From a virus, in the IMG/VR virus record IMGVR_UViG_3300047472_000281, positions 6,334 through 70,333 of that record: a stretch of 64,000 nt of DNA; one strand, 5' to 3'. This document shows, piece after piece, positions 43,663 through 64,000 of the stretch. The notes under the pieces are model-generated. The model did no database searches. It was not told where the DNA came from and worked only from the letters and a program-made list of their open reading frames with translations. The translations under genes were made by a program, and so were the position numbers. Positions within the stretch are counted from its first letter, which is position 1, and each line of letters begins with the position of its first letter.

Positions 43663-44844
43663 TCAGGCGAGAGCGGGCTGGCGCGGCAGGACGTCGCCGT
43701 CGAACCACTCTAGGTGGGCCATGGCGGCGTCCTTCTTGGACTTCGCTGCCAGCAAGTCTTCAAACCGCTGGATCACGGCCTCGGGCGTTGGGAACGTGTT
43801 CTCCAGACCATGATGAGCCAGGATGATCTCGCGGGCCGCAACGACCTGCACCGCCTCGTCATAGGTTGGGGCGCGCAGAGGCCAGCCCTTCACGTACCGC
43901 AAGCCCTTGGGCAGACTGGCCTCGAGGGCTTGGCGTTCGGCGCCGCGCACCTTGCCGACGGCCAGGCCTGCCGCGAGGGCCGGTGAGATCAGGTGCGGCG
44001 ACACATCGCCTAGCCAGCGCGTGGGCTGAAAGCTGAAGGTCGAGTTTGCCTCGACGCCGACCAGGTGACGATAGACCGCGTGGTTGTCCTCGCTGCGCGA
44101 CGAGGCTTCCTGATCACGGACCTTTTGCAGCACGCAGTAGGAGCAGCCCAGGCGAGACGTCCCGTGAACGCTGTAGGCAACGTGAAGGGGCAGGGCGTGG
44201 CGTTCATGATAGGCGAACACTTCGCCCAGCAGAACCTCGGCCGCTGGATGCCAGGACATCAGCGTCGTTCCGTCGCGCTTGGACCAACGAGGCTCGGGCT
44301 TCGACACCGGCGCCAAGCTGCGCGCGGGGCTCTCTTCGCGCCGGATCCCGATGACAGAGATGATCACGCGGCCGGGGAAAGCCTTCTGGAGGGCGGGCGA
44401 AATCACCTGCTGCTTGAGCTCGGCCGTGCAGAAGCGGAGACTAGCGCTCGACCAGGGTCCAATCAGGTTGAACACCTCCAAGGCGGCGTACCGGCGTTTA
44501 CCCTCGGCGAAGCGGGCCTCCCAGCGCGAAATCATGTCGTGGCGGCCATGGCGAACCACCATCAGCGGAACGCCCAGCTGCTCGGCGATGCGCTCGCACA
44601 TCGGCAGGCTTTCCTTCCACTCGATCCTGCCCAGGTCGGCGTGGATTGCCACGCGGTCCTCTTTCGGGTGGCCCAGCATGTCCAGGAGCCGGTTCGCGGA
44701 ATGCGCGGCGACCGAGGAGTCCTTGCCACCGCTCAGGCTGAAGGCAACGACGGCACCGGCTCGGATGGCCGCCAGGACCTCGGTGTCGACCGCGATCCCG
44801 ACCTCGCGGAACATCTCGATCTCTTCGGCGGTGGTCATCGTCAT
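43663..44844 (-). CDS. Phosphoadenosine phosphosulfate reductase family protein (PP-loop)
   Basis: SLSGGKDS, RFCTAELK, GIRREES..R, SRLGCSYC; ATG 44844 after repeat SD. Confidence 0.88.
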   Translation of the reverse strand: MTMTTAEEIEMFREVGIAVDTEVLAAIRAGAVVAFSLSGGKDSSVAAHSANRLLDMLGHPKEDRVAIHADLGRIEWKESLPMCERIAEQLGVPLMVVRHGRHDMISRWEARFAEGKRRYAALEVFNLIGPWSSASLRFCTAELKQQVISPALQKAFPGRVIISVIGIRREESPARSLAPVSKPEPRWSKRDGTTLMSWHPAAEVLLGEVFAYHERHALPLHVAYSVHGTSRLGCSYCVLQKVRDQEASSRSEDNHAVYRHLVGVEANSTFSFQPTRWLGDVSPHLISPALAAGLAVGKVRGAERQALEASLPKGLRYVKGWPLRAPTYDEAVQVVAAREIILAHHGLENTFPTPEAVIQRFEDLLAAKSKKDAAMAHLEWFDGDVLPRQPALA

Positions 44845-44899
44845 AGGGTCGTTCCTTGCTGGCCCGCGCCACATGCGCGGGCTGATTGATCTGGTGGGT

Positions 44900-45133
44900 C
44901 TACTGGCAGGCGACGTCGATGCTGGAGCGCAGCTCTTCGAAGTGGCCGGGCAGATCGTCCTGCAGGGTGGTGATCGCGTCCTGCATCTTGATTCCGCTGT
45001 CGGCGCCCTGAAGGCTCTCAGGGAGGTTTTCGAACGCGGCCTGTTCAGCGGCGAGCACCTCTTCGACAAGGGTCTCGGCCTGATTGATCAGCTCGGCGGC
45101 TTGCTGGAGCATCTTGCGGCGGTCGTTGTTCAT
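44900..45133 (-). CDS. Small acidic helical phage protein
   Basis: MNNDRRK...EQAAFENLPESLQ; ATG 45133 after repeat SD. Confidence 0.75.
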   Translation of the reverse strand: MNNDRRKMLQQAAELINQAETLVEEVLAAEQAAFENLPESLQGADSGIKMQDAITTLQDDLPGHFEELRSSIDVACQ

Positions 45134-49976: not shown

Positions 49977-51110
49977 TTAGCCCGTCGCCTGGCCGTCGTC
50001 GACCACCTGGGCGGCCGCTACCGGAGCCGCAACGACTTCGTCTTCCAGGGCCGAGCGGAGATCGCTGGAGAGCACGTGCGCGTAGCGCTGCGAACTCTGG
50101 ATCGTGGCGTGGCCCAGGAGCGCCTGGACGGCCTTCAGGTTCTTGGTGCGCTTCAGAACGGTCGAGCCGGCGTGGTGGCGCGCGCCGTGGATGCGTCGGG
50201 CGCCGGTGAGCCCCGCGGCGTCCGCCGCCTTGCTGACGCGGTATTCGATCTGGTTGTACGTGTAGCAGACCAGCTTCTTGCCCTGCTGGTGGAACCACAG
50301 GTGTTCGAGGCCGGCCTCGACGGCGCAGGAGTGGCGGGCGGCCAGGGCGCGGCCGTGGTCCAGGCGAAGGGGAATGACCAGCAGGACGTCGCGCTTGCGG
50401 CCCTTCTGCAGGGTCAGCGTCGGATCCTCGGGGTCGAGGTTCAGCGCCGAGGGCGGGAACAGCAGCTCGCCCAGGCGCAGGCCATAGGTCAGCAGCATGT
50501 CGACCGCGAGCGCCATGTCTTCCTCGGCCGCGGCGATCCATCCTGTCCGCTCGGCCGGACTGTAGAGCCGGCTCAGGCCGCGCGGCTCCCGCAGACGCAG
50601 GACGCGCCAGTCGATATCGGGCAGGCCATGCGGGGTCTCGGCCGGCGTCCAGTGCGTTCTGGCGCGGCGGAGGATCGGCCGGAGGGTTTCGATGACGTCC
50701 CGGTTCACGGTCGAGTTTGACGGCTGATAGACCAGCGCGTCGTCGGCATGGCCGCGCTTCAGCGTCTGTTTCTTCCGGTCTTCGATCGCGGTGGCGACGA
50801 TGTCCTGGCCGATCGAGCCCAGTGTTTTGTTCTTGCCGATCAGCGCCACCAGGTTGTGAACCCTGCGCTCGACATCGCGATTGTCGCCGCGATGGATGCC
50901 GACCTCTTCCCACCAACGGCCGGCGGCTATGTCCAAGGTCATCAGCGAGACCGCGCCCAACTGGCCGGTGGCGGCCGCCATGCGCTTCTTGGTCTCTACG
51001 GCCTCGGCTGCACGACGCGTAGCCTGACCGGTCGATCCATGAAACCGCGTCCCGCCGATGACGAAGTCGTACTGCCAGAAGCGGCTTTTGGTCGGTTTGT
51101 AGACGGACAC
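49977..51110 (-). CDS. Tyrosine integrase
   Basis: GLRLGE, HGARH, LGH, RYAH catalytic residues; N-terminal arm-binding region. Confidence 0.95.
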   Translation of the reverse strand: MSVYKPTKSRFWQYDFVIGGTRFHGSTGQATRRAAEAVETKKRMAAATGQLGAVSLMTLDIAAGRWWEEVGIHRGDNRDVERRVHNLVALIGKNKTLGSIGQDIVATAIEDRKKQTLKRGHADDALVYQPSNSTVNRDVIETLRPILRRARTHWTPAETPHGLPDIDWRVLRLREPRGLSRLYSPAERTGWIAAAEEDMALAVDMLLTYGLRLGELLFPPSALNLDPEDPTLTLQKGRKRDVLLVIPLRLDHGRALAARHSCAVEAGLEHLWFHQQGKKLVCYTYNQIEYRVSKAADAAGLTGARRIHGARHHAGSTVLKRTKNLKAVQALLGHATIQSSQRYAHVLSSDLRSALEDEVVAAPVAAAQVVDDGQATG

Positions 51111-51355
51111 TGCTCCGGCTCCTTGGGCTTCACGACTATCGGCGGCGGGTTGATCAGATAGGCCCGCAGCACCGCCTCGCTATAGGTCGGCCTGCTGCCA
51201 CGCGGGCACGCCTGGATGTCGCCAGACGCAGTCATCGCTCGCAACACCTTCACGTCAAGACCGATCAGCTTGGCGGCCGCCTTGGCAGTGATCGTCGCGC
51301 GGTCCGCGAACTCGACTTGGAATCGCGCTTCGGTGGCCGGACCGAGGAAGGTCAT
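50996..51355 (-). CDS. Putative excisionase (HTH)
   Basis: AKAAAKLIGLDVKVLRAM winged-helix-like; overlaps integrase 5' end. Confidence 0.7.
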   Translation of the reverse strand: MTFLGPATEARFQVEFADRATITAKAAAKLIGLDVKVLRAMTASGDIQACPRGSRPTYSEAVLRAYLINPPPIVVKPKEPEQCPSTNRPKAASGSTTSSSAGRGFMDRPVRLRVVQPRP

Positions 51356-51858
51356 GACGACCTTCCCGCAGGGACAAGAGCTGCGGCCAGGGCGGCTTCA
51401 GGCGTCGCGCCAGACCCGATCAAGGTCCACTCGCGGTCGTTCACGCCGCCATTGACCCGGTGAACGCACCAGCCGTCGTCGCCTTCGTCGGCCCTGTGAT
51501 AGTCGAAGCTGAGCTCGAAGTTCTTGTTCTCGCCGAGCCGCTTCAACAGGTCCATCTCCCCCAGAGCCGCAGGTGCGGGAGAGGCGTCGGAGTTAAGCCG
51601 GATATGGCCGGTGATGCCCGGCTCCTTCAAGCGCTCGGGGTGAGCCGCGCGGTAGGCCGAGAACTCGTCCAGGCGGTCCATCACGGCCTGTCGGTGGTGC
51701 GGGTGGCTCACCATGTCGAGATAGGCCATCAGCACGGCGATGGAGTGCTTGTCGCGAGCGCGAAACAGGATCACCGGCTCATCATCGGGGATCGCCTCGC
51801 CCGATACGCGGTTGACGAACCCGCCGTCTTCGAACTTGAACTTGCGGTCTTCAGCCAT
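51352..51858 (-). CDS. Hypothetical phage protein
   Basis: IPDDEPVILFRARD motif; coupled. Confidence 0.75.
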   Translation of the reverse strand: MAEDRKFKFEDGGFVNRVSGEAIPDDEPVILFRARDKHSIAVLMAYLDMVSHPHHRQAVMDRLDEFSAYRAAHPERLKEPGITGHIRLNSDASPAPAALGEMDLLKRLGENKNFELSFDYHRADEGDDGWCVHRVNGGVNDREWTLIGSGATPEAALAAALVPAGRSS

Positions 51859-52426
51859 GGGTCAGGACTCCGGTGCGGCTGTCGACGATCCCGACCGCGC
51901 AGGCCCGCCAGAGCAGAACGTCGACCGTGGCGACCTTGAAGCCGCTTTCGGCGGCCAGGCGCTCGCACAGGGCCTGCGCGGTGCAGCCGGCGTGGTCGGC
52001 AAGACGCTGAAGGTGGACATCGGGCTTGGCGACCTGCGCGCCGAAGTTCTTGGCCAGGTGATATTTGGTGATCTTGCCGATGTAAGGCAGGCCGCCGCAG
52101 AATTCGACGAGATCACCCGTGGTCTGAAGGGCGGCGTACAGTTGGTCGCGCTCCGCCCAGATCCTGTCGATCGCCTTGGCCTTGCCGACGTTGCGCAGGC
52201 CGTCGAACGCAGGCCGTCCGGCTTCTAGGGCGGTCATGACGCGGTCGTAAATCTTGCGCGCGGTGGCGAACTTCATGCCCCCGTTGCAGATGACAAAGAT
52301 CGCCTCTTGAGCGAAGTCCTCGGCGGTCGCTGGCATCGTGATCGCTTCCGACCAGGCGATGTCGTCTTCGCCCCATTCGGTGCAACGGAGGCGTTCGACC
52401 ATGATCTTGAAATCGGACGGGCTCAT
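51851..52426 (-). CDS. HhH-GPD DNA glycosylase-like protein
   Basis: LPYIGKIT HhH followed by KPDVHLQRL and VDVLLW; ATG 52426. Confidence 0.65.
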   Translation of the reverse strand: MSPSDFKIMVERLRCTEWGEDDIAWSEAITMPATAEDFAQEAIFVICNGGMKFATARKIYDRVMTALEAGRPAFDGLRNVGKAKAIDRIWAERDQLYAALQTTGDLVEFCGGLPYIGKITKYHLAKNFGAQVAKPDVHLQRLADHAGCTAQALCERLAAESGFKVATVDVLLWRACAVGIVDSRTGVLTHG

Positions 52427-53013
52427 CGCGTTGCTCCATCGGTAGCGGACCTCAGAACCGCGGTCGACAGAGCCAGCGGACCCAACAGGATCGAGCACGT
52501 GCCCGCGCCCCCCTCGACGCCGAAAGCCCAGTGGCTGAGGTTGAAGAATAGGGCGAGGCCCACGGGGTCCGACATTCTCCAGAACCAGAGCGTTCTCCAT
52601 GATCCCGGCGGGACCAGTTCGACGCGCGTCAGACCCGTTTCCAACCCGGTCGGCCTCGGATAGGTGGCCTCTACGGCCGTCAAAATCTGATCGGCTAGGC
52701 TGCGTTCGGAGGTGAACACCGGCGCGCCGGCGCCTGTGCCTTCCTCCGCGATCATGCGGGCGATCAAGTCGGCGACAGGCCGCTCAAACGGCACCTTGCA
52801 GTTCAAGCAGCGCGCGCCGTGAAGGATGGGCCGGTCATAGTTCGCCGGCACGGTCCAGGTTTCCGGCGTCTTGTGCAACGCGCTGATGCAGGTCGGACAG
52901 ATGATCCATCCGTCCCAATAGTGCCGCCACCCGGCGACCTCGGCCGCGCTAAGAGCCCGGCCGCGAACGGGGCTGAGTCCTAGAATTCCACCTTGTTGAA
53001 CCGCGTCGGTCAT
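52423..53013 (-). CDS. Hypothetical protein with CxxC motifs
   Basis: CPTC...CLNC; ATGA coupling. Confidence 0.6.
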   Translation of the reverse strand: MTDAVQQGGILGLSPVRGRALSAAEVAGWRHYWDGWIICPTCISALHKTPETWTVPANYDRPILHGARCLNCKVPFERPVADLIARMIAEEGTGAGAPVFTSERSLADQILTAVEATYPRPTGLETGLTRVELVPPGSWRTLWFWRMSDPVGLALFFNLSHWAFGVEGGAGTCSILLGPLALSTAVLRSATDGATR

Positions 53014-53591
53014 GCCGCCACCGCCTCGGCCCGCTCGGCGATGATCGCAGCAGTGAAGTGTGGCCAGATCTCAGACCAGAACCCCTCGGCTTGCGGGTCG
53101 TACTTCTCCCACTTGTCGTCGTAGAGGTCGTGTCGCGACATAAGGCAATTGGACTCGCTGTCCCATTGGGCGAGGAAGTGCTGGCAGTTAAAGGCGTCGC
53201 CCCGCGCGCTCTCGATCGCATCGAACAGCTGTCTGGCGTCGGCGCGCGTCAGACCATCATGGCGGCGCCGTTCAACCACCAAGCCGCGCGCCTTGTCCGC
53301 TGCCTCGCTAACGTCCAGCGGCGTCCAGAGCCGCAAGCCCATCATCTTCTTCATGGCGTAGTCGAAATCGAGGCTCGCCAGGAAGTCGCGCCAGTCGCCG
53401 CCGATGTGCGACCAACAAAAGCCGAACGATCCGTAATCGGAGATCACGCTGACGTTGACCCAGCGGCGCTCGCCGGAGGTCAGCTTGTCGTCCGTGACCA
53501 CGCCATGGTCGACATAGAGGTAAGCCCAGGCCCAACCGTTCCGGACGGTGTAGCGGGTGGCAGGTGAGGTGTTGACGGTCAGTTTGGTCAT
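53010..53591 (-). CDS. Hypothetical phage protein
   Basis: ISDYGSFGFCW...FW.EIWPHF; coupled. Confidence 0.75.
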   Translation of the reverse strand: MTKLTVNTSPATRYTVRNGWAWAYLYVDHGVVTDDKLTSGERRWVNVSVISDYGSFGFCWSHIGGDWRDFLASLDFDYAMKKMMGLRLWTPLDVSEAADKARGLVVERRRHDGLTRADARQLFDAIESARGDAFNCQHFLAQWDSESNCLMSRHDLYDDKWEKYDPQAEGFWSEIWPHFTAAIIAERAEAVAA

Positions 53592-54025
53592 GGCTGCACC
53601 AGATCATCAGGAACGTTGAACCAGCCCTGGCCGCCCTTCCAGGGGATCGGCGTGTCCAGGAGGCGTCGGTCTTCGCCGCGCCAGGCGAACCGGCCGTCTT
53701 CCCAGAGGCCGAAGATGCGATCGAGGTTGTGGGCTGGCGCGACGCCGGTCATCGGACCCATCTTTCGGCAGTCGGTTATGACGACCGAGCCTACCAAGGC
53801 GCCGAACGGCAGGGTCTTGCGCCATCTGGAGCCGAAAGCGCCCACGGCGGCGGCTTCGGCCTCCGCACCGATTATCGCCGGCGTCACGACGCGCTTGGCG
53901 GCATGGATCATGACCCGCTGGCCGATGATGGCCGGAGGACAAACCCAATGACGGGTCTCGTTGACCTTCAGTTCGTCGTGGAGATAGGCGCTGGCGTAGG
54001 GTTGCCAGAGGGAGATCGCCTTCAT
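53588..54025 (-). CDS. ASCH domain protein
   Basis: MKAISLWQPYAS, KxxETRxW, IHAAK, PIPWKGGQGWF. Confidence 0.9.
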   Translation of the reverse strand: MKAISLWQPYASAYLHDELKVNETRHWVCPPAIIGQRVMIHAAKRVVTPAIIGAEAEAAAVGAFGSRWRKTLPFGALVGSVVITDCRKMGPMTGVAPAHNLDRIFGLWEDGRFAWRGEDRRLLDTPIPWKGGQGWFNVPDDLVQP

Positions 54026-54510
54026 GACGTCACCTCCGGCGCCTTCAGGCGGATGTGATTGCCGTCGTTTTCGATCAGGAAGAGCGTGCGCAGGCCCTCG
54101 GCCTGTTCGGTTAGCAGACGCTGCATCTCGGACTCGCTTTCGATCTCCGAAATGCAGGAGATGACCTCGGAGATCGCGCGGCAGACCAAGAAGCGCCTGC
54201 CCGCGCGGCGGCGCCGCATCGCGCGGTCGCTCTCAAGGGCCTGTTCCCCTGCCGATTTGGGGTATGGGCCCCATAGGCCGTTCCCCTTCAGGTGATCCTG
54301 AAGGTCTTGGCAAAGGGCGTGGAACTGCGAACGGCCCAGCAGTGCTTCTAGGTCATCGCAGACCTTATCGTACCAGGGCTGGCGTTCAGCCGACCGACCG
54401 AGGCTGAACAGCCTCAGTCCCCAAGCCAGCTGATAAACCGGTGTCGCCGGCGCGCCGTAGCGGATCGCTGCGGCCATGACCGGGTGGCTGGTGCTATCGC
54501 GCGAGATCAT
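54022..54510 (-). CDS. Hypothetical protein
   Basis: GGAGG SD, ATG 54510, ATGA overlaps. Confidence 0.55.
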   Translation of the reverse strand: MISRDSTSHPVMAAAIRYGAPATPVYQLAWGLRLFSLGRSAERQPWYDKVCDDLEALLGRSQFHALCQDLQDHLKGNGLWGPYPKSAGEQALESDRAMRRRRAGRRFLVCRAISEVISCISEIESESEMQRLLTEQAEGLRTLFLIENDGNHIRLKAPEVTS

Positions 54511-55571
54511 GCGCCCACCTCCGGCATGGCGTTGTGCTCGATGCCGTCCAGTAGGCGGCCAGACGCCTTCTTGCCGATGAATTTCAGCTGGGTGCCCAGC
54601 GTATGGACCCCGTCGTCGTCGAGCCGTTCCCAAGCGACGGCGTAGCGCCCCTGACTTGACTGTAACAACGAGACCGAACCCAGCGGATGCGTGACCTCAG
54701 TCGCCCGGAACGGACGGTCGAGGTCCGGGTCGGCACCCCATGCGCCCCACTGTTTGAAGAAGAAGTCGACGCCCTCCGCCTCGCAGGCGTCGCGGAGCCG
54801 GCGGACCCAGTCGGGGTGCATCGGGCGCGCGCCGGCGCCGCTCTCGCCGCCGACGATGATCCAGTCGAGCGGCGGGACGTCGGGAAACGGCTCGCCGTCG
54901 TCGTCCTCGCAGTCGGTGTCCCAGCGCAGCGGGTTCAACTCGCTGTACCCGCCCATGACATCGATCGGGCCGGGGTCGATCGGACTCAGCATCGGCTCGA
55001 CCGAGACGAAGCGTTTGGCGGCGATCGTCCACAGCAGCTCGGGGACGCGCTCGTCCCACATGATCTGGTTCTCGGCCGACACGCCCAGCCAGACGTTCGG
55101 AAGCGGCAGTTTCACGCCGTCGGGAAAGAGGTCGTACATGCCGGTGGCCACGAGGCGGTCGTGCAGGTTGGCGGCCAGTCCCGCGAAATACTCCCGCATC
55201 CGCTGGGAGCGCTTGGTCAGCACCTGATACGTGTGCCAGGGCGAAAGGTGCATGATCGCGACGACCATATCGATCCAGGCGTCAGGAACGCCTTCCGCGA
55301 ACAGGTCGCCGTGTGCGCAGACAAAGATGCGGCGCGGCTTCTTCCAGTGGATCGGCTGAGACAGCCAGCCTTCGTTCAGGCGGACCTCGCCGGTCCAGAC
55401 TGGGCCGGCCTTGCTGGGCTTGGTCAGGCCGGCGCGGCTGGGGTGGTGCTGGAGCCGCCCGCCTGCGAGCTTCATCGCATAGCAGTTGGTGCAGCCAGAC
55501 GAGACGATGTCGCAGCCCGTGATCGGGTTCCAGGTCGCGTCGGTCCATTCGATGTGGGACTTGTCGGCCAT
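54507..55571 (-). CDS. DUF5131 / phage Gp37-Gp68 family protein (radical-SAM-like)
   Basis: IEWTDATWNPITGC...GCxNCYA, LTKR, WIIVGGESG, FFFKQWG. Confidence 0.93.
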   Translation of the reverse strand: MADKSHIEWTDATWNPITGCDIVSSGCTNCYAMKLAGGRLQHHPSRAGLTKPSKAGPVWTGEVRLNEGWLSQPIHWKKPRRIFVCAHGDLFAEGVPDAWIDMVVAIMHLSPWHTYQVLTKRSQRMREYFAGLAANLHDRLVATGMYDLFPDGVKLPLPNVWLGVSAENQIMWDERVPELLWTIAAKRFVSVEPMLSPIDPGPIDVMGGYSELNPLRWDTDCEDDDGEPFPDVPPLDWIIVGGESGAGARPMHPDWVRRLRDACEAEGVDFFFKQWGAWGADPDLDRPFRATEVTHPLGSVSLLQSSQGRYAVAWERLDDDGVHTLGTQLKFIGKKASGRLLDGIEHNAMPEVGA

Positions 55572-55572
55572 G

Positions 55573-55842
55573 TCAGGCGGCCTTTCCTTTGAACGCGCCG
55601 ATGCGCAGGGTCTCGCGAAGGGTCTGTTCGCCGACCAGAGCGGCCGCCCAGACGCCGGTGTCGTAGCTGGCCGCTGCTAGCGGATCGGGGGACGGCAAGG
55701 TGCTCTGATGGCGCCGCCATGCGGCCACGTGCGCCAGCGCCTCGCCGGCGGTTTCGAACGTCATCGGCCAGAATGCCACGCGGCCGTCCCGATAGAGGAA
55801 CACCGGATAGGCCCGAGCCCTGGAGTTGAAGGGGCGCGACAT
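55573..55842 (-). CDS. Hypothetical protein
   Basis: TGATG coupling. Confidence 0.55.
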   Translation of the reverse strand: MSRPFNSRARAYPVFLYRDGRVAFWPMTFETAGEALAHVAAWRRHQSTLPSPDPLAAASYDTGVWAAALVGEQTLRETLRIGAFKGKAA

Positions 55843-56544
55843 CAGGCGGCCCTTTCGATGCCAGAGGCCTCGATTTCCAGCCGCTCGACCCGCGTCCAGA
55901 TGGCCTGATAGGTTTCACGCGGCAGCAACTCGCGCGCCGCGTCGATGAACATCCGCTCGCGACCGCTGTTCTGCTCGGCGGTCTTGGCGACTCTATCAGC
56001 GCGGCTGATCACGCCCCGGCGGACCTGCAGGGCAGAGCGGAGCGACTTCATCGCGCGGATCAGGGTGTTGGTCGCGGCTAGGAAGCCCTCGTCGCGCTGG
56101 CCCGATGGGAACCCGATCTCGTCGTTCCGGTCATTCTCGACAGCGACGATGCGTTCCGCCAGCCAGGCGACATGGCGGTCGATCTCGACGACGGTGGAAA
56201 TGCCTTCAGGGTCGATCTGAGGCCGGCGGGCGAGCACTTCGTTCGTCAGAGGGTCATTGTCGCCGGCTGGCCGCACGTGAGCGACGCCCTTGATAGGCTT
56301 GGGCCCCGATTGACGCCGGAGGGTCTTGATCCGTGCCCAGAGGAGTTTGGACGCGTGACGATGGGCCGTCAGCGCGCCGATCGCCCGATGGCGCCAACCG
56401 TCCACGTCGTCCTGGGTGTTCTGAAGGGTGGTCTCGATCCGCGTCACGACCAGATCGACCTCGTCGCGAAGCGCGATCAGGGCATTGAGGTCCGTGATTG
56501 CCTCGACCTGCGCCGCAGTAGGGAGTTCGATGCGCTCGCCCATA
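55842..56544 (-). CDS. Hypothetical helical protein with internal duplication (start approximate)
   Basis: Two similar helical modules; ERMFIDAARELL C-terminus. Confidence 0.65.
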
Positions 56545-56811
56545 TCAGTCGGCTCCGAAGATGCAGGCGGTGAGGTCGCGGCCGACATTGGCGTCCGCGA
56601 GGGTGAGGGTCAGCCGCGGCGGCTGTTCCACCGTGCTGTCGTCGGCGAGCCCGACCTTCCATTCGCCGGCCAGGCCCAGGGCCCGCATATCGCGGACGGC
56701 GTCGGCCAGGCGGTTGAGCGCGATGCGTCGCGACTCGGCGGTCTTGCGCACCTTCTCGGCCGCCACCTGGGCGATCGAGTTAGCCGTGGCGAAGGGGCGG
56801 GCGGCGCTCAC
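56545..56811 (-). CDS. Hypothetical protein
   Basis: GTG 56811 overlapping upstream stop. Confidence 0.5.
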   Translation of the reverse strand: MSAARPFATANSIAQVAAEKVRKTAESRRIALNRLADAVRDMRALGLAGEWKVGLADDSTVEQPPRLTLTLADANVGRDLTACIFGAD

Positions 56812-57053
56812 AGCCGCAGATCCTGGATGTGCCCGTTGGCCAGGCCTCGCTGGCCGTGGGCGATGTGCCGCTTGTCCCAGCCGTGAAACTCCTCGGCGCT
56901 CAGGCCGTGAGCCTTCAGCACCTCGTAGAGCGTCAGTTCGCCCTTGCGGACGGCGAGCACCACGGCCGCCTTGCGGCCTGGCGTCCAGCGGCGGACGGGG
57001 GTGAGCAGGTGCAGCGGGCTGGGCGGCGGAGCACGGTGCGGAACGTACGGCAT
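56808..57053 (-). CDS. sciP: SciP-like (DUF1153) CtrA-inhibitor homolog
   Basis: RRWTPGRKAAVVLAVRKGELTLYEVLKAHGLSAEEFHGW...HGQRGL...IQ matches the SciP pattern RWxxxRKAxVVxAVRxGxL...EEFxxW...HGxxGL. Confidence 0.85.
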   Translation of the reverse strand: MPYVPHRAPPPSPLHLLTPVRRWTPGRKAAVVLAVRKGELTLYEVLKAHGLSAEEFHGWDKRHIAHGQRGLANGHIQDLRL

Positions 57054-57055
57054 GG

Positions 57056-57268
57056 TCAGGTGTCCATGATCTCGGTTTGGGCAGGGCCCGCGCGCACGCC
57101 GAAGGCAAGGCCGGTGTGGGAGACGAGGGTGGTCAAGACACCTTGGGTCACCCATGCGGCGGCCAAGTCCTGGGCCAGACGCTCAGCGAAGGCTTCGGGC
57201 ATGCGGTCCTCGTCGATCGTGACGTGGGCGACGTGCTGGACCAGAACAGCGAAGGTACGCGCGGCCAT
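57056..57268 (-). CDS. Hypothetical protein
   Basis: Fills operon gap exactly. Confidence 0.55.
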   Translation of the reverse strand: MAARTFAVLVQHVAHVTIDEDRMPEAFAERLAQDLAAAWVTQGVLTTLVSHTGLAFGVRAGPAQTEIMDT

Positions 57269-57270
57269 GA

Positions 57271-57687
57271 TCAGGCCGTCGCGCTCTGCGGGGTCGTCAG
57301 GATCCGCGCGCAGGTGATCATGCCGCTGCGCGCCATGGTCGAGGCCTGCAGGTAGCGCTGGGCGATCTCCAGACCGCCCGGCTCGACCGTCAGGCGGATG
57401 GCGGGGTTGTCGATCTCGGCCGTGCTGGTCGGGTCGGTCTCGAAGCCTTCAAAGAAGGCGGCTGGCCCCACATCGAGCCTTTTGGCGATGGCCCAGAGCT
57501 TGGACGCCGAGACTCGGTTATGGCCGTTTTCGTACTTCTGGACCTGCTGGAACGACAGGCCCAGGCTATCGGCCAGCTGCTCCTGGCTGACGCCGATCTG
57601 CTTGCGACGGCTGCGGATCATCGCGCCGACGTGCTTGTCGATCTGGGTGGCGGCCTTGGCGGGTGTTTCGGTCTGGGGATTGCTCAT
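57271..57687 (-). CDS. XRE-family transcriptional regulator
   Basis: IDKHVGAMIRSRR...SQEQLADSLGLSFQQVQKYENGHNRVSASKL. Confidence 0.92.
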   Translation of the reverse strand: MSNPQTETPAKAATQIDKHVGAMIRSRRKQIGVSQEQLADSLGLSFQQVQKYENGHNRVSASKLWAIAKRLDVGPAAFFEGFETDPTSTAEIDNPAIRLTVEPGGLEIAQRYLQASTMARSGMITCARILTTPQSATA

Positions 57688-57698
57688 GGGGGGCGTCC

Positions 57699-57788
57699 TC
57701 AAGCGGCGGTGGCGATGAAATGGGCGAGCAGTCCGAACGCCAGCAGCACGGCCAGGCAGAGCAGGTTGTGATGCGGCGTTCGGAGCAT
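57699..57788 (-). CDS. 29-aa hydrophobic peptide
   Basis: MLRTPHHNLLCLAVLLAFGLLAHFIATAA fills operon gap. Confidence 0.4.
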   Translation of the reverse strand: MLRTPHHNLLCLAVLLAFGLLAHFIATAA

Positions 57789-57799
57789 GTCAGCGCGGC

Positions 57800-58084
57800 C
57801 TAGCGGCGGCCGTGCATGGGCGGGTTCGCACGCGCCGTGGGCGGCTTGTCGAAGCCCGGGGTGTGGCCGTTGTCGAGGTGGATGACGGGATGGTTGGGGT
57901 CGATGTCCAGACGCTGGACGTCGAACCACTCGCCTTCGCGGGTCTTGCCATCGGTATCGACCGGCGGCGTCACGGAGACCCGATTGCAGCCGGTCAGATA
58001 GATGCAGTAGGCGGTGGCCACGCCCTTGAAACCGGTCACCCGGTCTTTGACGGTGGCGCCGAGGATGGCATTTGCTTCAGTCAT
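57800..58084 (-). CDS. Hypothetical phage protein (SH3-like)
   Basis: LGATVKDRVTGFKGVATA...LTGC...WFD; AAGGAG SD. Confidence 0.8.
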   Translation of the reverse strand: MTEANAILGATVKDRVTGFKGVATAYCIYLTGCNRVSVTPPVDTDGKTREGEWFDVQRLDIDPNHPVIHLDNGHTPGFDKPPTARANPPMHGRR

Positions 58085-58109
58085 AGGTCTTCTCCTTGGG
58101 TTGAAGGGG

Positions 58110-58856
58110 TTAGGCCGCGTCGGCCGGCGCGCTTTGGCGCTGTTGCTGGCGCAGCGTCTGGTGGTGGCGGGCCGTGAACATCACGTCCGCGTCGAAGTCC
58201 CGATCGAGGATCCAGAACAGGAAGCTGTCTTCGGCTTCGGTCCATGGACGACCCTTTCGGTCGCCGAACGGCATTCGCGCCAGCAGCGCCGGCTGGGTGG
58301 TCCACTCGACCAGCTGGTCGGCGGTGGCGATCTTCAGCAGCTCGCGCAGCAGGAAGGCCGTGACGTAGGCGTCGGGGCCGGCGCGATGGGCGGGCGTGGC
58401 CAGCGCACGATCGAGGCCGTCTGGCTTCAGCCAATAGCGCAGAGCCTGATTGCTGTGGCTGGGCGCTTCAGGCCAAGCGTGCAGCGCGCATTTCCAGGTG
58501 CAAATCCACGGCGTGTCGCCGGTGTGCTCGCCGAGGTAGTGGCGCTCCATGCCGATGTTATGGGCGACGAAGGCCAGCACGTCGGCGTTGTCGACGAAGG
58601 GCTTAACGACGTCATCGATCCGAGGGGCGCGCTCGACATCCTCGTCCACGATGTGATGGACCGCGCTGGTCTGCGGCGGGATCGGGACGCCAGGGTTGAT
58701 CAGGCAGGCGTCGGGCGTCAGCGGGACGAAATGGACGCCGAGAACGTTGTTGTGCACCTGAACTAAGTCGCACTTTGCGATCTCGACCACCTTGCCCTCG
58801 GGGGCGAAGTCAGTCGCTTCAAGGTCCAGGATACGGAAGAAGGGCAGGAGATTCAC
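58110..58856 (-). CDS. DnaQ-family 3'-5' exonuclease (exonuclease X-like)
   Basis: LDLEAT, VAHN, WICT, HRAGPDA, MPFG motifs; GTG 58856. Confidence 0.9.
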   Translation of the reverse strand: MNLLPFFRILDLEATDFAPEGKVVEIAKCDLVQVHNNVLGVHFVPLTPDACLINPGVPIPPQTSAVHHIVDEDVERAPRIDDVVKPFVDNADVLAFVAHNIGMERHYLGEHTGDTPWICTWKCALHAWPEAPSHSNQALRYWLKPDGLDRALATPAHRAGPDAYVTAFLLRELLKIATADQLVEWTTQPALLARMPFGDRKGRPWTEAEDSFLFWILDRDFDADVMFTARHHQTLRQQQRQSAPADAA

Positions 58857-59629
58857 GCTGCAGTCCTTTGAGCGTTGATATGGGCCAGCAGCTGCAAGCC
58901 CATGTGGTGGGTGAAGGCAGGGGGGATGGCGTTGGACAGCTCGTCGAGCGTCATCCAATCGATGCCCATGGCCTCGCTGGCGGCGGCCTTGTGGCCACCG
59001 ATCCAGACGTCCTTGGTGCCCCGGCCGCCGTACTTGGCGGCGCGGTTGCGGGCGTGGCCGCCATAGACGCCGATGACGGGCTGAGTGTGGGCGCATGGGC
59101 CAGGCGCGGTGGCCGGGAAGCTGGTCTCGAACAGGCGCTCGCGCTGCAGCTGGTGGCCTTGGGCGCCGAGGCCGAACATCGAGCCGCACAGCATCAGGGG
59201 ATTGATCATGTCCCAGCCTGCGTCGACGACGTTCTCGATCACGTAGGGCAGGCCGGTGGCCTTCAGCAGCGTGCGGAAGGCCGGAATCATGCAGGGCTTG
59301 CCCTTAGCGCCCGGCGCGTGACGCATGCCGGTGTAGCCCTGGCAGTCGGGCGAGGCGTGGACGCCGTCGAAATTGGCGGCGATCCAGGCCGGGTCGAGCG
59401 CCAGAGCGTCGGTGACCATCAGTTCGTACGGATAATTGCGCTGCTTGGTCAGATCGGCGCCGACCACTTCGAAACCCGCGTCGGCATAGCCCTTGCTGCA
59501 GCCGCCGGCCTTGCAGGCCAGATCGAGCAGCCGGGGCTTGCGCGCCCAGTTCGAAACATCGAACTCGATGCGGTCGGTTGCGACGTCTGGTTGGCCGGGA
59601 GCCAGGAGTGTGGAGCGGACGGCCGTCAC
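58853..59629 (-). CDS. Short DNA cytosine methyltransferase-like protein
   Basis: LLDLACKAGG, HASPDCQ, IENV, RxRLFE, AIPPAF. Confidence 0.8.
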   Translation of the reverse strand: MTAVRSTLLAPGQPDVATDRIEFDVSNWARKPRLLDLACKAGGCSKGYADAGFEVVGADLTKQRNYPYELMVTDALALDPAWIAANFDGVHASPDCQGYTGMRHAPGAKGKPCMIPAFRTLLKATGLPYVIENVVDAGWDMINPLMLCGSMFGLGAQGHQLQRERLFETSFPATAPGPCAHTQPVIGVYGGHARNRAAKYGGRGTKDVWIGGHKAAASEAMGIDWMTLDELSNAIPPAFTHHMGLQLLAHINAQRTAA

Positions 59630-61662
59630 AGCGGCATGCTCGACGTGTCGACCGACAGGGCGATCATCAGCTGGCGCTGGGGCGCGACCCAGATCGGATC
59701 GGTCGACAGCATGAACGTCTGGCCCGACCAAGCCAGCAGTAGGGTCTTGCCCATGACGCTGGCGATGGCGGCCGCGGCGTCGGAAGGGACGGCGTTACCA
59801 ATACGCTCGCGCCAGGCGCTGTCCGACTTGCCGTCGAGCGTGAAACCCCAGGCTTCTTCCGGTTCGAAGAAGCTCTGCAGGCCCGCCAGATCCAGCGTAG
59901 TGAACGGGCGATGCCACGTGCCGTCCAGAGACCGGATCACGCAGACGAGGCGATCGCCCTTGGTGGGCAGGGCCTCGGTCTGGTCGCCGACGGCCTCGCG
60001 CGGGTCCGCGACCGACCATGAGCCATTGTTATTCTTGGCGTAGGCGGGGATCGCCTTGCTGGTTTCGTCCCAACCTATGACGCCGTAGTGCCCCTGGTTG
60101 GCATAGGTGTCGCGGTTCTTGCCGGCCAGGCCGACAGGGCGAGGGTCAGCGACCGACCAGCGACCGTTGTCCCAGGGGTGGGCGTTGCCCAGCACAGCGC
60201 CGGTGTGATCGTCCCAGGTCTGGACGCCGTAGTGGTCGGCGCGGTGCGTCTCGGCGGCGTTGAGCCCTACTGGTCGCGGATCAGCGACCGCGAAGGCGCC
60301 GTCGCCGGTAGTGCTAGCCGAGATCACCGTCCTGGACGTGCCCGAGTAGGGCGTGACCAGATACTTGGTGTGCTCGTAGCCGTCGCCGGCGGGATGGCGC
60401 GGATCGGCGACGCAGGCCATGCCGCCGCGCGCCGAGGTGACGGCGCCCGAGGCATCGCCATAGCGCACGATCTTATAGACGTTGGAGAAGCGCGGCCCGT
60501 CATCGCCCACGCGCGGGTCTGAGACGGCGAAGCCGCCCTGGCCGGTGCTCTTGACGTTGATGATCGCCCCGGTCGTGTCCTTCCAGCCGCGCACGCCGTA
60601 TTGCCCGGCCTCGTAGCCGTTGGCGTCGAAGCGGGGATCGGCGACACTGTTGGCGCCGTTCGTCGGCGACGAGCGGCCGGCGACGACGCCGGTGTGCTCG
60701 TCCCAAGTCCGAACGCCCAGCACGTCGCTGTTCCAGTTGACGTCGCCAGGACGGACATCCGTCGCCGGCTCGGGGCGACCGCCGTCGGGCACGATCCCGA
60801 AGTCCTTCAGGTGGCCGTCTTCGACCGCCAGCTTGTTCAGCGACCGCCAGTCGGACCCAGCCTCGACGAAGGCCAGGCGAACCCAGGTCTGCCACTGCAG
60901 GGCCGGGATCCGGTGCATAGGGCCGGCGCGCTCGTCGCCTGGCAGGGGCATGCGGTCCAGGATCTCGCCGACGCCGCGCAGGCCGCGCTTGGGCGGCTCG
61001 TACAGGAACGGCGGCACTTTCTTCTCGTGGCGGGCGACCAGCAGGAACCGCTTGCGGCTCTGGGCCAGATTGCCGATCTCCCCGCAGTCATGGGTGGTCT
61101 CCGACACCGCGTAGCCATAGGCGCGCAGCATGCCGGTGATCTGGTTGAGCAGCTTGCGGCCGCGCTTGGCGATCCGAGGCACGTTCTCGAAAATGAACAG
61201 CTCGACCGGGTCGTCGGCATAGGCTTCCAGCGCCAGCATCATGCCGCGCACGGTCAGTTCGTTCAGCGCCTGATACTTGTCGGTCTTGCTGGTCGTCTCC
61301 GACAGCAGGCCGGAGAAGCCCTTGCACGGCGCCGACAGGAAGATGATGTGCGGCTTCTTGAAGCCAAACGCGGCGTGGATGTCGTGCGGCAGGGCAGGGG
61401 TCCAGCCCGGCGGCGGCAGTTGGCCGTGGAAGGCGACATACTGCTCGAAGCTGAACAGGTCACGCACCGTGGCCTTGGTGCCCGTCAGGGTCTCGAAGTC
61501 ACGCACGCCGGCCGCGTCGACATCGATGCCGCCGACGCATTCGAAGACGGCTTCCATGCTGCCGACGCGGGCCTGGCCCATGTTGAAGCCGCGCGCGCCC
61601 GAGCCCAGGCCACAGAAGATGTGGCCGTGGCGGACGACCTTTTTGATCGTGATCTCGCTCAT
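59626..61662 (-). CDS. DNA cytosine-5 methyltransferase with expanded repetitive variable region
   Basis: FCGLG, SAPCKGFS, ENV, QSRKR, IGNAVP motifs; repeated VADPR units. Confidence 0.92.
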   Translation of the reverse strand: MSEITIKKVVRHGHIFCGLGSGARGFNMGQARVGSMEAVFECVGGIDVDAAGVRDFETLTGTKATVRDLFSFEQYVAFHGQLPPPGWTPALPHDIHAAFGFKKPHIIFLSAPCKGFSGLLSETTSKTDKYQALNELTVRGMMLALEAYADDPVELFIFENVPRIAKRGRKLLNQITGMLRAYGYAVSETTHDCGEIGNLAQSRKRFLLVARHEKKVPPFLYEPPKRGLRGVGEILDRMPLPGDERAGPMHRIPALQWQTWVRLAFVEAGSDWRSLNKLAVEDGHLKDFGIVPDGGRPEPATDVRPGDVNWNSDVLGVRTWDEHTGVVAGRSSPTNGANSVADPRFDANGYEAGQYGVRGWKDTTGAIINVKSTGQGGFAVSDPRVGDDGPRFSNVYKIVRYGDASGAVTSARGGMACVADPRHPAGDGYEHTKYLVTPYSGTSRTVISASTTGDGAFAVADPRPVGLNAAETHRADHYGVQTWDDHTGAVLGNAHPWDNGRWSVADPRPVGLAGKNRDTYANQGHYGVIGWDETSKAIPAYAKNNNGSWSVADPREAVGDQTEALPTKGDRLVCVIRSLDGTWHRPFTTLDLAGLQSFFEPEEAWGFTLDGKSDSAWRERIGNAVPSDAAAAIASVMGKTLLLAWSGQTFMLSTDPIWVAPQRQLMIALSVDTSSMPL

Positions 61663-61976
61663 GCCTTGGCCGCCTTCGCAGCCAAGCCGGGCATGACCTT
61701 TTCGCTATAGTCGAATACAGCCTGCAGCGCCGTTCGCGCGGCCGCTTCGTCGTTGACGGACTCGCCGAAAATCTTCGCAACGACGTGGGGATGGCCCGAG
61801 ATGCTCATCGAGATCTCGCCGTCGATCTGGTCGCACCCGACCGCGAAAACGACACTGTCGCGACTCGCGTCGTCCTCATGCTCCCGGACGGAGACCAGCA
61901 GCTGCCAGCCGTCGATCTCCCAGAACTTCCAGAGCTTCAGCGGCGTCAGGCCATAGGTGTTAAGGGGCGCGCTCAT
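61659..61976 (-). CDS. Hypothetical protein
   Basis: ATGA coupling on both sides. Confidence 0.65.
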   Translation of the reverse strand: MSAPLNTYGLTPLKLWKFWEIDGWQLLVSVREHEDDASRDSVVFAVGCDQIDGEISMSISGHPHVVAKIFGESVNDEAAARTALQAVFDYSEKVMPGLAAKAAKA

Positions 61977-62242
61977 GCGCGGGCCTTCAGGGCTTCGTTC
62001 TCGGCGCGAACGATGGTGATCAGGCCCGGGTCGAAGTGGTTATGCTGGTAGATGCACTGCTCGCAGGCCAGTTCGATGAAGTAGTCGGCCAGCAGCAGGC
62101 CGACCTCGCGCGGCGTGGCGTCCTCGCCGATCTCCGGCGGCGCCTTGCCCAGTTCGGGCAACAGGACGCGCTTTTCGCCCTGGGCGAAGATGTCGGCGAT
62201 CTGGCTGCGAGACAGCGTCACCTCGTTGATCCGGATAATCAT
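61973..62242 (-). CDS. Hypothetical protein
   Basis: ATG 62242 coupled to upstream TGA. Confidence 0.6.
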   Translation of the reverse strand: MIIRINEVTLSRSQIADIFAQGEKRVLLPELGKAPPEIGEDATPREVGLLLADYFIELACEQCIYQHNHFDPGLITIVRAENEALKARA

Positions 62243-62373
62243 CAGAGGAAGGGTCCTTGGATCCACAGGAGGACGTGCAGGCCGAGCGCCAGGCCGGCGA
62301 TGCCGACCAGGGCGACTTGGAACGGGGTGAGGGGCGGGGGCGTCTGGCGCTCGGGCGGAGGACGGCCGGGCAT
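62242..62373 (-). CDS. 43-aa single-TM peptide (not in ORF track)
   Basis: TGATG coupling on both sides; MPGRPPPERQTPPPLTPFQVALVGIAGLALGLHVLLWIQGPFL. Confidence 0.5.
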   Translation of the reverse strand: MPGRPPPERQTPPPLTPFQVALVGIAGLALGLHVLLWIQGPFL

Positions 62374-62762
62374 CAGATCAGCCCAACGGCGGTGCGCAGG
62401 ACGAAGAACAGCGCAACGGCCCCCATGCCGACGTAGATGATGCGGTCACCGATCCGGGCCCAGGCGGGAACGGGGCGGGGCGGCGGGATCGGGCGAAGCG
62501 GGCGGGCGGCGTTGCCGGCGGGCGTGAGGTGGTGGCGCGGCTCGCCCTCCAGCGGCGGCGGCAGGCCTTCCTCGAGTATCAGCGCGCAGCCCTCGGGCGG
62601 GCGGACGGATTCGTAGACGCGCGTGTAGGCGTTCATGGCGGCGTCGCCCACGCGGATGAACTCGGCGGGGCATTCGCCGCGCTCGGCCATCTGGGCCGCC
62701 GTCAGAGTTTCGCCGGTCAGCAGGGCCATGAGGCCGGGACGCTGGGTTTTCGGCTGGGCCAT
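62373..62762 (-). CDS. Hypothetical protein with C-terminal TM
   Basis: Pro-rich linker and hydrophobic C-terminus. Confidence 0.6.
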   Translation of the reverse strand: MAQPKTQRPGLMALLTGETLTAAQMAERGECPAEFIRVGDAAMNAYTRVYESVRPPEGCALILEEGLPPPLEGEPRHHLTPAGNAARPLRPIPPPRPVPAWARIGDRIIYVGMGAVALFFVLRTAVGLI

Positions 62763-62765
62763 GGC

Positions 62766-63335
62766 TCAGGCCCCCGCCACGGTGGTCGACGGCCAGCGAT
62801 AGGCCCGGCAGGGCACGCGGCCGAAGGCGGTGTTGAGGCGGATCTCGGGGCCGTGGGGCGCCCAGACCAGGGCGACAAGCTCGCCGCGGTCCTGGGTCTG
62901 CGCATCGGTGACGACGCAGCAGTCCGGCCCGTTGCCCAGGGTCATGATGATGTCGCCGGGGAGGGTCTTCAGCGGGAAGACATGCTCGATCCGCTGCAAG
63001 CCCCAGGACTCGATCGCGGCGCAGATGGAGTCACCCGACGGGTCGTGGTCGGGCCAGCCCATGTAGTCGCGAAGGTCGGCCAGATCGGCCGGTACGACGA
63101 AGCCGTGCCCTTCGGCCCAGCTTGCCGCGACCTCAGCGCACCAGCGGACAAAGCCGAAGGCGTCAAAGCCCTCGGGCGTCGTGCGGCCACCCGGCGTGTA
63201 GGTCGGGTGATATTTCGTCACGAGGGTTTTGGCCGCCCAGGCCATGACTTCGGCGCGGGTCAGCGTCGCCGGTAGCGGCGTGGTTACGCTGAAGTCTAAC
63301 GCCTTCTCGGCGCACGGTGCGGTAGTGGCGTCCAC
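62766..63335 (-). CDS. NlpC/P60-like protein lacking the catalytic Cys; first gene of early-left operon
   Basis: YTPGGRTTPEGFDAFGFV and LPGDII; GGAG SD. Confidence 0.6.
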   Translation of the reverse strand: MDATTAPCAEKALDFSVTTPLPATLTRAEVMAWAAKTLVTKYHPTYTPGGRTTPEGFDAFGFVRWCAEVAASWAEGHGFVVPADLADLRDYMGWPDHDPSGDSICAAIESWGLQRIEHVFPLKTLPGDIIMTLGNGPDCCVVTDAQTQDRGELVALVWAPHGPEIRLNTAFGRVPCRAYRWPSTTVAGA

Positions 63336-63362
63336 GATGGTCTCCCCCGAGGTTCTGGGGAG

Positions 63363-63413
63363 ACGATAGGAAACCTATTTCAAGCGGTCAACGAAAAAGA
63401 TAGAAAAAATATC
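63363..63413 (-). promoter_or_regulatory. Early leftward promoter (PL-like) with two operator palindromes
   Basis: Minus-strand TTGACC-17-TATCGT; GATAGGAAACCTATT (63365-63379) and GATAGAAAAAATATC (63399-63413). Confidence 0.75.
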
Positions 63414-63747
63414 ATTCGCCCGTGCCGATATGTTTGTTACGCGCACCCTCGGCGCCCGGGTTGCCTCCGAGCTGCGATAGGCGCTCATCTAGGCGTGTCG
63501 GCCTATTCGCAAGGGTGGTGTTTGCAGACTCAGACCCTAGCCATGCGATGAGTGAGGTTGCGCCAATAACGAGCGTGGCCACCAGCGCGATCCAGCACCA
63601 AGCTGGAACCTTTTGCGCTAGACCCAGTCCGACAGCGATAACGATCATGAGTAGTGCAATCCGGCTTAGAGCCGTGATTGCACCAGTAATCGCACCCACG
63701 CCAAGCAGGAGAATGGCGACAATCATAAGCAACAGAAAAACGATCAT
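63412..63747 (-). CDS. Membrane protein co-transcribed with repressor
   Basis: About three hydrophobic segments; lower GC; starts right after repressor stop. Confidence 0.65.
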   Translation of the reverse strand: MIVFLLLMIVAILLLGVGAITGAITALSRIALLMIVIAVGLGLAQKVPAWCWIALVATLVIGATSLIAWLGSESANTTLANRPTRLDERLSQLGGNPGAEGARNKHIGTGE

Positions 63748-64000
63748 CTAGGCGGCCTCTGACCATCGACGGATGATCTTCTGCGCTTGAATTGGCGGTA
63801 TGATCGCCGTGATGTGCGCTGCCCAGCGGATCTCGACGTCTTCAAGCGTTGGTCCCAGTATCGACTGAAGGTCAAAGCGACCGGTTGCCGATCCTCGCAT
63901 CAACCGCTTTACAAGGACGCGGCCATCCATTGTTTCCACGATCACCACCCTGTTGAGCATGTCCTTGCCAGGCTTGGTGACTTGTTCCTCGAAGTAGAGC
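63748..64000 (-). CDS. CI-like repressor C-terminus (S24 peptidase domain), 5' end outside window
   Basis: DGRVLVKRL, FDLQS, DVEIRWAA motifs; sits upstream of PL-like promoter. Confidence 0.8.
   Translation of the reverse strand, partial: LYFEEQVTKPGKDMLNRVVIVETMDGRVLVKRLMRGSATGRFDLQSILGPTLEDVEIRWAAHITAIIPPIQAQKIIRRWSEAA

Follow-up and report, generated by a model that had tools for sequence, protein, structure and literature searches.

P0001, a short phage-borne helix-turn-helix protein of the DUF1153/SciP superfamily

Results

By comparison with family profiles, the small phage protein P0001 is a member of the DUF1153/SciP superfamily and is not a SciP ortholog, because it scored at about half of the cut-off of a SciP-specific model and the N-terminal third of that model is absent from its sequence. 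Its gene is part of a leftward gene block in a temperate phage, and the gene order around it is kept in related viruses. On function we are tentative, and we give slightly less than an even chance to the reading that P0001 is a small helix-turn-helix (HTH) regulator that works on DNA and shares its leftward accessory operon with an Xre-type regulator and the small proteins p70 and p88.

A short DUF1153 gene in a temperate phage

The window, by which we mean the whole 64,000-nucleotide stretch of DNA that was analyzed, comprises bases 6334-70333 of a virus record that is 70,333 bp long, has direct terminal repeats, and is rated 100% complete. The plus strand of the window encodes a DnaB-type helicase, a large terminase, a portal protein, a capsid-protease fusion, and a tail gene, and the first 6.3 kb of the record carry plus-strand replication-type genes. 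The minus strand, followed downwards from ~63.9 kb, encodes two DNA methyltransferases, an exonuclease, a phrog_16275 protein, and an Xre-type regulator, and then, in order, p70, the DUF1153 protein, p88, two further ORFs of no known family, and DUF5131 (Table 1). A tyrosine integrase gene lies further down the same strand, ~6 kb from the DUF1153 gene, which indicates that the phage is temperate; the classification of four of five related viral records as provirus agrees with the presence of this integrase. Together with the completeness and terminal repeats of the record, the terminase, portal, capsid, tail, and integrase genes bear out the proposal of the sequence-only reading that the DUF1153 gene is phage-encoded. 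Two plus-strand ORFs, at 3331-4302 (323 aa) and 8384-10372 (662 aa), matched the phrog_15 large-terminase family, and this pair could reflect a duplicated or partial second terminase-like gene.

Table 1. Positions of the genes discussed, in window coordinates unless another locus is named
Feature	Position	Strand	Remarks
Tyrosine integrase	49977..51110	-	PF00589, 46.5 bits in the record, 46.2 bits on the ORF
DUF5131 (phage Gp37/Gp68 family)	54507..55571	-	Pfam 290.5 bits; phrog_2045
p88, 88 aa, conserved partner of no known family	56545..56811	-	GTG start
P0001 gene, DUF1153/SciP superfamily, short phage-borne type	56808..57053	-	81-codon ATG-to-TGA ORF, single-domain HTH
p70, 70 aa	57056..57268	-	no Pfam or PHROG match; weak syntenic tblastn matches in L002 and L004
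Xre-type HTH_3 regulator, 143 aa	57271..57702	-	Pfam HTH_3 57.1 bits; PHROG transcriptional regulator/repressor families
phrog_16275 protein, 94 aa	57800..58084	-	PHROG 70.8 bits; upstream of Xre
DnaQ/RNase_T-like exonuclease	58110..58805	-	phrog_192, 94 bits; Pfam RNase_T 23.4 bits (cut-off 24)
93-aa SciP-grade gene	L038:4043-4321, record G405 (L042-L044)	+	NF051866 111.7 bits; Pfam DUF1153 113.7 bits

The DUF1153/SciP pattern noticed earlier in the letters of this stretch coincides exactly with a minus-strand ORF, and an HMM search with the Pfam DUF1153 profile (PF06627) matched its product, P0001, over positions 27-87 of the 87 in the profile, with a score of 53.5 bits (E=2.7e-14; gathering cut-off 23.5). 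In a six-frame Pfam search of the record, DUF1153 scored 52.1 bits at the same gene. The protein begins with a Pro-rich leader of 19 residues. If translation is taken to begin at an earlier ATG, at 57155, the product is 115 aa long, does not match any better, and overlaps the upstream ORF; the homolog in the viral locus L002 starts at the equivalent Met. A pattern scan of IMG/VR returned 34 matching stretches, five of which were confirmed relatives, with identities of 74% (L002), 52% (L003), 41% (L004), 41% (L005), and 36% (L006). The P0001 gene is real because it has conserved homologs, namely the 74%-identical syntenic copy in L002 and remoter copies in L003 and L004. These homologs and a dN/dS of 0.46 between P0001 and the L002 copy (70 codons) rule out a chance ORF in GC-rich DNA.

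More distant homologs were found by a full HMMER search of 1.84 billion representatives, which returned 878 proteins at E<=1e-3. Eight of them reached E<=1e-10, and E<=1e-30 was reached by none; the best match is 55% identical. A word-index homolog search recovered the query itself only. Among 50,697 cultured-phage records, the sole match was a faint one in Erythrobacter phage XM05 (37% identity, E=8e-4), and P0001, p70, p89, and the next ORF in its 248-aa form all lacked a PHROG family. The short DUF1153 proteins of related temperate phages and of metagenomes (P0002, P0003, P0005, P0007, P0009, P0010, and P0012, and those of L002-L004) resemble P0001 in length (73-85 aa), in their L-x-P-V-x-R-W-T start, in an invariant His49, and in scoring below the SciP cut-off. 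Judged by these sequence features, P0001 is a member of a short phage-borne DUF1153 subfamily that has no PHROG family.

P0001 compared with SciP orthologs

NCBIfam model NF051866, named 'CtrA inhibitor SciP', is an equivalog model of 90 positions with a cut-off of 100 bits. It was the best NCBIfam match of P0001 (IS66 TnpA scored 20.5 bits), at a score of 52.1 bits that is below the cut-off and with only positions 30-90 aligned. The sequence-only reading had called the gene a phage SciP (CtrA inhibitor) homolog; of this description, the DUF1153 family and the phage setting stood, and the identity with SciP was not supported, at 52.1 versus 100 bits. Four phage-type proteins tested, including P0001, scored 42-52 bits on NF051866, and five related viral records scored 43-72 bits, with none of the five over the cut-off. 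Five of six cellular-type representatives scored 100.1-117.4 bits, and the sixth scored 92.6 bits. In a sample of 401 alphaproteobacterial genomes, which includes the unpublished genome G242, 156 had an NF051866 match over the cut-off and 172 had any match at E<=1e-5, and chromosomal SciP scored 103-146 bits among the matches listed.

P0001 and SciP share a Pfam family, and P0001 is ~45-50% identical to SciP-grade representatives over a core of ~60 residues. It differs from SciP in having no counterpart of SciP positions 1-29, in its length (81 aa rather than about 90-100 aa), and in being phage-borne. The full-length SciP architecture with the L-P-P-x2-T-x-R-W motif was not found in P0001, where the SciP motif LPPP-x-T is reduced to LLTPV (LPP to LT-P and T to V). 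The R35A and R40A variants of SciP reportedly lose function, a point that was given no weight here. The primary papers on SciP, which define the CtrA interaction, are Gora 2010, Gora 2013, and Tan 2010.

We took as SciP-conserved the 31 positions that are kept in at least 80% of 50 SciP-grade rows. P0001 has the SciP residue at 24 of these positions, five other phage-type rows tested (including L002, L004, P0003, and P0009) have it at 17-21, and IS3 OrfA proteins have it at 13-15. The R-W, R-K, LS-EEF-W, and HG-x2-GL motifs of SciP are present in P0001, and the seven replacements (SciP residue first) are P18T, T20V, R26G, R48A, Y49H, T74G, and Y79L. Tyr49, which is near-invariant in SciP, is His in all 14 phage-clade rows and in four of six IS3 OrfA rows. 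By these residue counts, P0001 comes closer to SciP than the rest of its clade, and the clade overall is not SciP.

A tree was built from ~72-residue domains of listed hits of at most 200 aa plus the loci (154 domains in total); after five truncated rows had been dropped, it contained 149 rows and 73 columns, and the six IS3 OrfA rows (support 99) served as its root. Within this tree, P0001 and its L002 homolog paired at support 98 in a basal grade of short proteins, and a nested crown that excludes P0001 took in every one of the 50 rows with scores of 100 or more on a proxy SciP profile. Because the branches that part P0001 from this crown had SH-aLRT values of 81-90, none at the high-confidence mark of 95, and because long-branch effects are possible, the placement of P0001 outside the SciP crown is suggestive and not firm; fast evolution in phages could have pulled its clade towards the outgroup.

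As a separate, weakly supported observation from this tree (IS3 OrfA root, SH-aLRT 81-90, 73 columns), the SciP-grade crown was nested within the grade of short phage-like DUF1153 proteins, and cellular SciP might have descended from a mobile-element HTH.

SciP binds CtrA, blocks recruitment of RNA polymerase, and is a Lon substrate, and it is made from a CtrA-activated promoter and has a possible TGTCGCG motif (PMC4083442, PMC6847485). P0001 could in principle act as a mimic of SciP that, at promoters activated by CtrA, binds the host CtrA and keeps RNA polymerase from being recruited, so that flagellar, pilus, chemotaxis, and division genes would be shut off in early infection, upon induction, or in lysogeny. 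We consider this role unlikely, if still a serious contender. The shared Pfam family, the rank of NF051866 as best NCBIfam match, and the 24 identical SciP-conserved positions speak for mimicry, and with these identities P0001 may make a SciP-like protein contact. The same comparisons also hold the evidence against mimicry: a score at about half of the NF051866 cut-off, the missing SciP positions 1-29, the replacement of seven conserved positions including the near-invariant Tyr, and the placement of P0001 outside the SciP crown in the tree.

Kinship with IS3 OrfA proteins and the predicted fold

A scan for the motif RWT-x-[GA]-RK[AE]A[VL] in one genome per species returned 160 stretches and 13 confirmed loci. 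According to their record titles, nine of these loci are from Phycisphaerales/Phycisphaeraceae, and one each is from Isosphaeraceae, Acidobacteriota, Sphingomonadaceae, and an alphaproteobacterial MAG. Two of the 11 non-alphaproteobacterial loci were opened (L007 and L010), and in both the motif ORF encodes an IS3-type OrfA and is followed by an ORF with HTH_21, rve, and rve_3 domains. The Planctomycetota IS3 OrfA proteins scored 33-39 bits on Pfam DUF1153, over the threshold, and matched HTH_28 too; on the same scale a SciP-grade protein scored 113 bits, and P0001 (53.5 bits) lies between that protein and IS3 OrfA. Because IS3 OrfA proteins pass the same threshold, a DUF1153 match is not diagnostic of SciP, and thus even the plainer reading of P0001 carries the lesson that a Pfam DUF1153 match by itself does not identify SciP. 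With IS3 OrfA proteins of both Planctomycetota and Acidobacteriota exceeding the DUF1153 gathering threshold, the Pfam family extends past SciP-like proteins.

The N-terminal HTH of IS3 OrfA (HTH_28 / HTH_Tnp_1 type) and P0001 share an R-W-T-x2-R-K-A-A-V arm, the HTH, a W, and a G-x2-G-L motif, and IS3 OrfA resembles the phage clade in having His as the majority residue at position 49. The SciP-type positions common to OrfA (13-15 of 31) and P0001 (24 of 31) are no more than general HTH kinship explains. Unlike IS3 OrfA, P0001 has no leucine-zipper extension and no downstream rve ORF, and it had no HTH_28 or HTH_Tnp_1 match at E<=0.01. We considered and rejected the reading of the P0001 gene as part of an IS element, as the downstream p88 and 233-aa ORFs have no Pfam match and no transposase ORF follows the gene. 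For SciP mimicry, the occurrence of the arm and motifs in these OrfA proteins is a counterargument, since they come from phyla in which CtrA is not known to occur.

An AlphaFold2 model of P0001, made from a 14-row alignment, had a mean pLDDT of 84.5 and contained three helices plus a long C-terminal helix (residues 13-17, 25-36, 42-49, and 53-71). A phmmer search of the PDB matched P0001 to the DUF1153 NMR structures 2jrt (E=2.6e-8) and 2oa4 (E=3.8e-7). When the model was compared with 48,161 chains by VIA-align, 2jrt ranked first (Z 6.0, rmsd 3.0, 61 residues aligned), and Foldseek gave a TM score of 0.60 for the same pair. The predicted fold of P0001 is thus that of solved DUF1153 members. 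The next fold matches, to KorB, Spo0J/ParB, TnsB, IstA, Tc3 transposases, CENP-B, and a small terminase, had Z scores of 4-5, a range that may mean merely a common helical arrangement. The recognition-helix region of P0001, LSAEEFHGW, is acidic, like that of SciP, which we read as an unusual property for a sequence-specific DNA reader.

Kinship with transposase OrfA HTHs, which bind element ends, and the presence of transposases and a small terminase among the fold matches at Z 4-5 would also suit an accessory DNA-transaction factor, whose HTH guides recombination or packaging and has no role in transcription. An OrfA-like binder of DNA ends would be one example and a recombination directionality factor serving the integrase another, and a temperate phage with an integrase on the same strand is a plausible setting for either. 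Nevertheless, we consider such a factor improbable. The integrase gene is ~6 kb away, the terminase gene is on the opposite strand and ~47 kb away, no transposase, rve, or other recombinase gene adjoins the P0001 gene, a resolvase was not found in the record, and the Z scores cited in its favor may reflect the common helical arrangement alone.

A probable alphaproteobacterial host and CtrA-related DNA motifs

GANTC, the site methylated by CcrM, was four-fold depleted in the window (76 sites versus 292 +/- 16 expected) and was also depleted in the five relatives L002-L006 (ratios 0.13-0.28). This avoidance fits hosts that methylate or restrict GANTC. The window has a GC content of 66%, and cultured-phage matches were faint and limited to phages of Erythrobacter and Labrenzia/Roseibium. 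On the strength of the GANTC depletion, the GC content, and these Erythrobacter and Labrenzia phage matches, the host of the phage is probably alphaproteobacterial. An alphaproteobacterial host would be CtrA-bearing, and in this respect the probable host favors SciP mimicry.

Wider comparisons gave more distant matches. A megablast search with positions 50000-64000 returned a single match, of 377 bp at 71% identity, in a Labrenzia phage. For the terminase, identity to cultured phages did not exceed 34%, and the matches spread over many host groups; capsid homologs were found in 20 of the 401 sampled alphaproteobacterial genomes at just 28-37% identity. The megablast, cultured-phage, and terminase comparisons gave no tie of the phage to Caulobacter. 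In the Erythrobacter phage locus L033, GANTC was not avoided (ratio 2.0).

The CtrA box TTAA-N7-TTAA had no occurrence in the window at up to one mismatch (0.67 expected), and the SciP motif TGTCGCG was not enriched there (20 occurrences versus 23.8 +/- 4.7 expected); both results count against SciP mimicry. A complex prediction for P0001 (alignment A1) with the Swiss-Prot CtrA sequence CTRA_CAUVC, a stand-in whose host may not be that of the phage, was run without controls and scored 0.00 versus a mark of 0.32, and it speaks neither for nor against binding. As a point for mimicry, phages of these hosts are reported to carry GcrA homologs and CcrM analogs; the same study describes alphaproteobacterial phages that read CtrA through binding sites (PMC9437464). 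If P0001 acts on CtrA, it would extend this picture of phages that read CtrA sites and carry look-alikes of GcrA and CcrM (PMC9437464), and it would provide a direct phage handle on the alphaproteobacterial master cell-cycle regulator.

A conserved, translationally coupled gene block

Within the long minus-strand block, the spacing of start and stop codons indicates that the P0001 gene is translationally coupled to its neighbors: its ATG lies 2 nt past the stop codon of the upstream p70 gene, and its stop codon overlaps the GTG start of p88 (GTGA). The block runs leftward and diverges from the replication and structural genes, a layout that, from gene order only, makes the earlier assignment of the P0001 gene to an early operon a fair guess.

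The order phrog_16275, Xre, p70, DUF1153, p88, and DUF5131 is kept in L002 and L004. In L003, the DUF1153 and p88 genes are kept and the DUF5131 gene is further downstream. As judged by these alignments, the Xre gene is the first gene of the conserved block; its copies are 50% (L002) and 48% (L004) identical. The p88 protein had no Pfam match, and the protein Atlas gave no usable match for it. By tblastn, it comes immediately or shortly after the DUF1153 gene in L002 (73% identity), L003 (43%), and L004 (33%). The phrog_16275 protein is 72% identical in L002 and 58% identical in L004, and the exonuclease is 78% identical in L002. DUF5131, whose gene lies at the downstream end of the block, is also encoded in L002, L003, L004, and L006.

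Upstream of the Xre gene is a perfect 10-nt inverted repeat, TCCGAACGCC / GGCGTTCGGA, at 57732-57741 / 57775-57784, with 33 nt between its arms, which could be an operator or a hairpin. Beyond it, a repeat scan of three intergenic stretches near the operon gave no convincing operator-like repeat. The N terminus of the DUF5131 protein carries a Cys cluster, and the ORF at 43663-45069 (-) encodes a PAPS-reductase-like protein (phrog_424). The occurrence of DUF5131, phrog_424, and two DNA methyltransferase genes in one strand block suggests a DNA-modification theme.

In lambda, host-modulating genes such as kil are located in the equivalent operon. The position of the P0001 gene, in a leftward accessory operon beside the exonuclease and integrase genes, is analogous and would be compatible with a host-directed SciP mimic. 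The reading that we prefer for P0001, a small regulator on DNA, gives this setting a different role. P0001 is little more than a single HTH domain of the DUF1153 superfamily, which includes alphaproteobacterial SciP and grades into the N-terminal HTH of IS3 OrfA. It would be co-translated with the Xre-type regulator and two small proteins of no known family, from a leftward accessory operon that also contains the exonuclease, the DNA methylases, and the integrase. Its HTH and basic N-terminal arm would act on DNA at phage or host promoters, and this regulation would need no CtrA. That P0001 binds DNA, when it is expressed, and what it targets are inferences in this scheme.

First, the fold matches include DNA-binding HTH proteins. 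Second, P0001 is kin to OrfA. Third, its gene is coupled in a setting with an Xre-type regulator. Finally, P0001 is not a SciP ortholog, and the window has no CtrA boxes. These features favor a regulator on DNA, and this reading is weakened by the acidic recognition helix, by the 24 SciP-conserved positions kept in P0001, and by our finding no DNA target in this analysis, neither an enrichment of TGTCGCG nor a repeated operator-like site near the operon. The probability that is left over from the regulator, the SciP mimic, and the DNA-transaction factor falls to any other role of P0001.

SciP-grade genes in other viral records

The 93-aa gene in the viral contig L038 (Table 1) demonstrates that SciP-grade genes do occur in phages, a point in favor of SciP mimicry. 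This 45.7-kb phage contig encodes helicases, a portal, a minor tail protein, and a tape measure, and its SciP-grade gene follows DNA polymerase I and adjoins an RNase_T exonuclease gene within a replication module. The contig has no other gene in common with the window. As judged from its profile scores, the L038 gene has a better claim than P0001 to be a phage-encoded SciP. It is also a better test case for the idea of a phage SciP. In the literature searched, with subscription journals and supplements outside its scope, we found no report of a phage-encoded SciP-family gene.

For the short phage DUF1153 proteins as a group, we regard it as doubtful that they are minimal SciP mimics that dock on host CtrA and shut down its regulon of flagellar, pilus, and division genes. 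If they are, the outcome could be receptor shut-off, superinfection exclusion, or a hold of the cell cycle, during infection or in lysogens. If this mimicry is true, then the short phage proteins and the L038 gene together would make SciP the third Caulobacter-type cell-cycle regulator taken up by phages, after GcrA and CcrM.

Two further viral records, G403 and G404 (loci L034 and L035), had SciP-grade matches of 139.9 and 113.8 bits, respectively. The 139.9-bit match lies 377 bp short of one end of a linear record of 44.8 kb, and the 113.8-bit match is in a provirus; either may be host DNA caught at the boundary of a predicted prophage. A Sphingomonadaceae MAG encodes two tandem DUF1153 paralogs that are sub-threshold, at 71 and 57 bits (L008:5920-6696; G001:C39). 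These paralogs adjoin a gene that by eye looks like an S24/LexA-type repressor, and the same genome has a canonical SciP of 139.5 bits. Another alphaproteobacterial MAG had seven matches, four of them over the cut-off.
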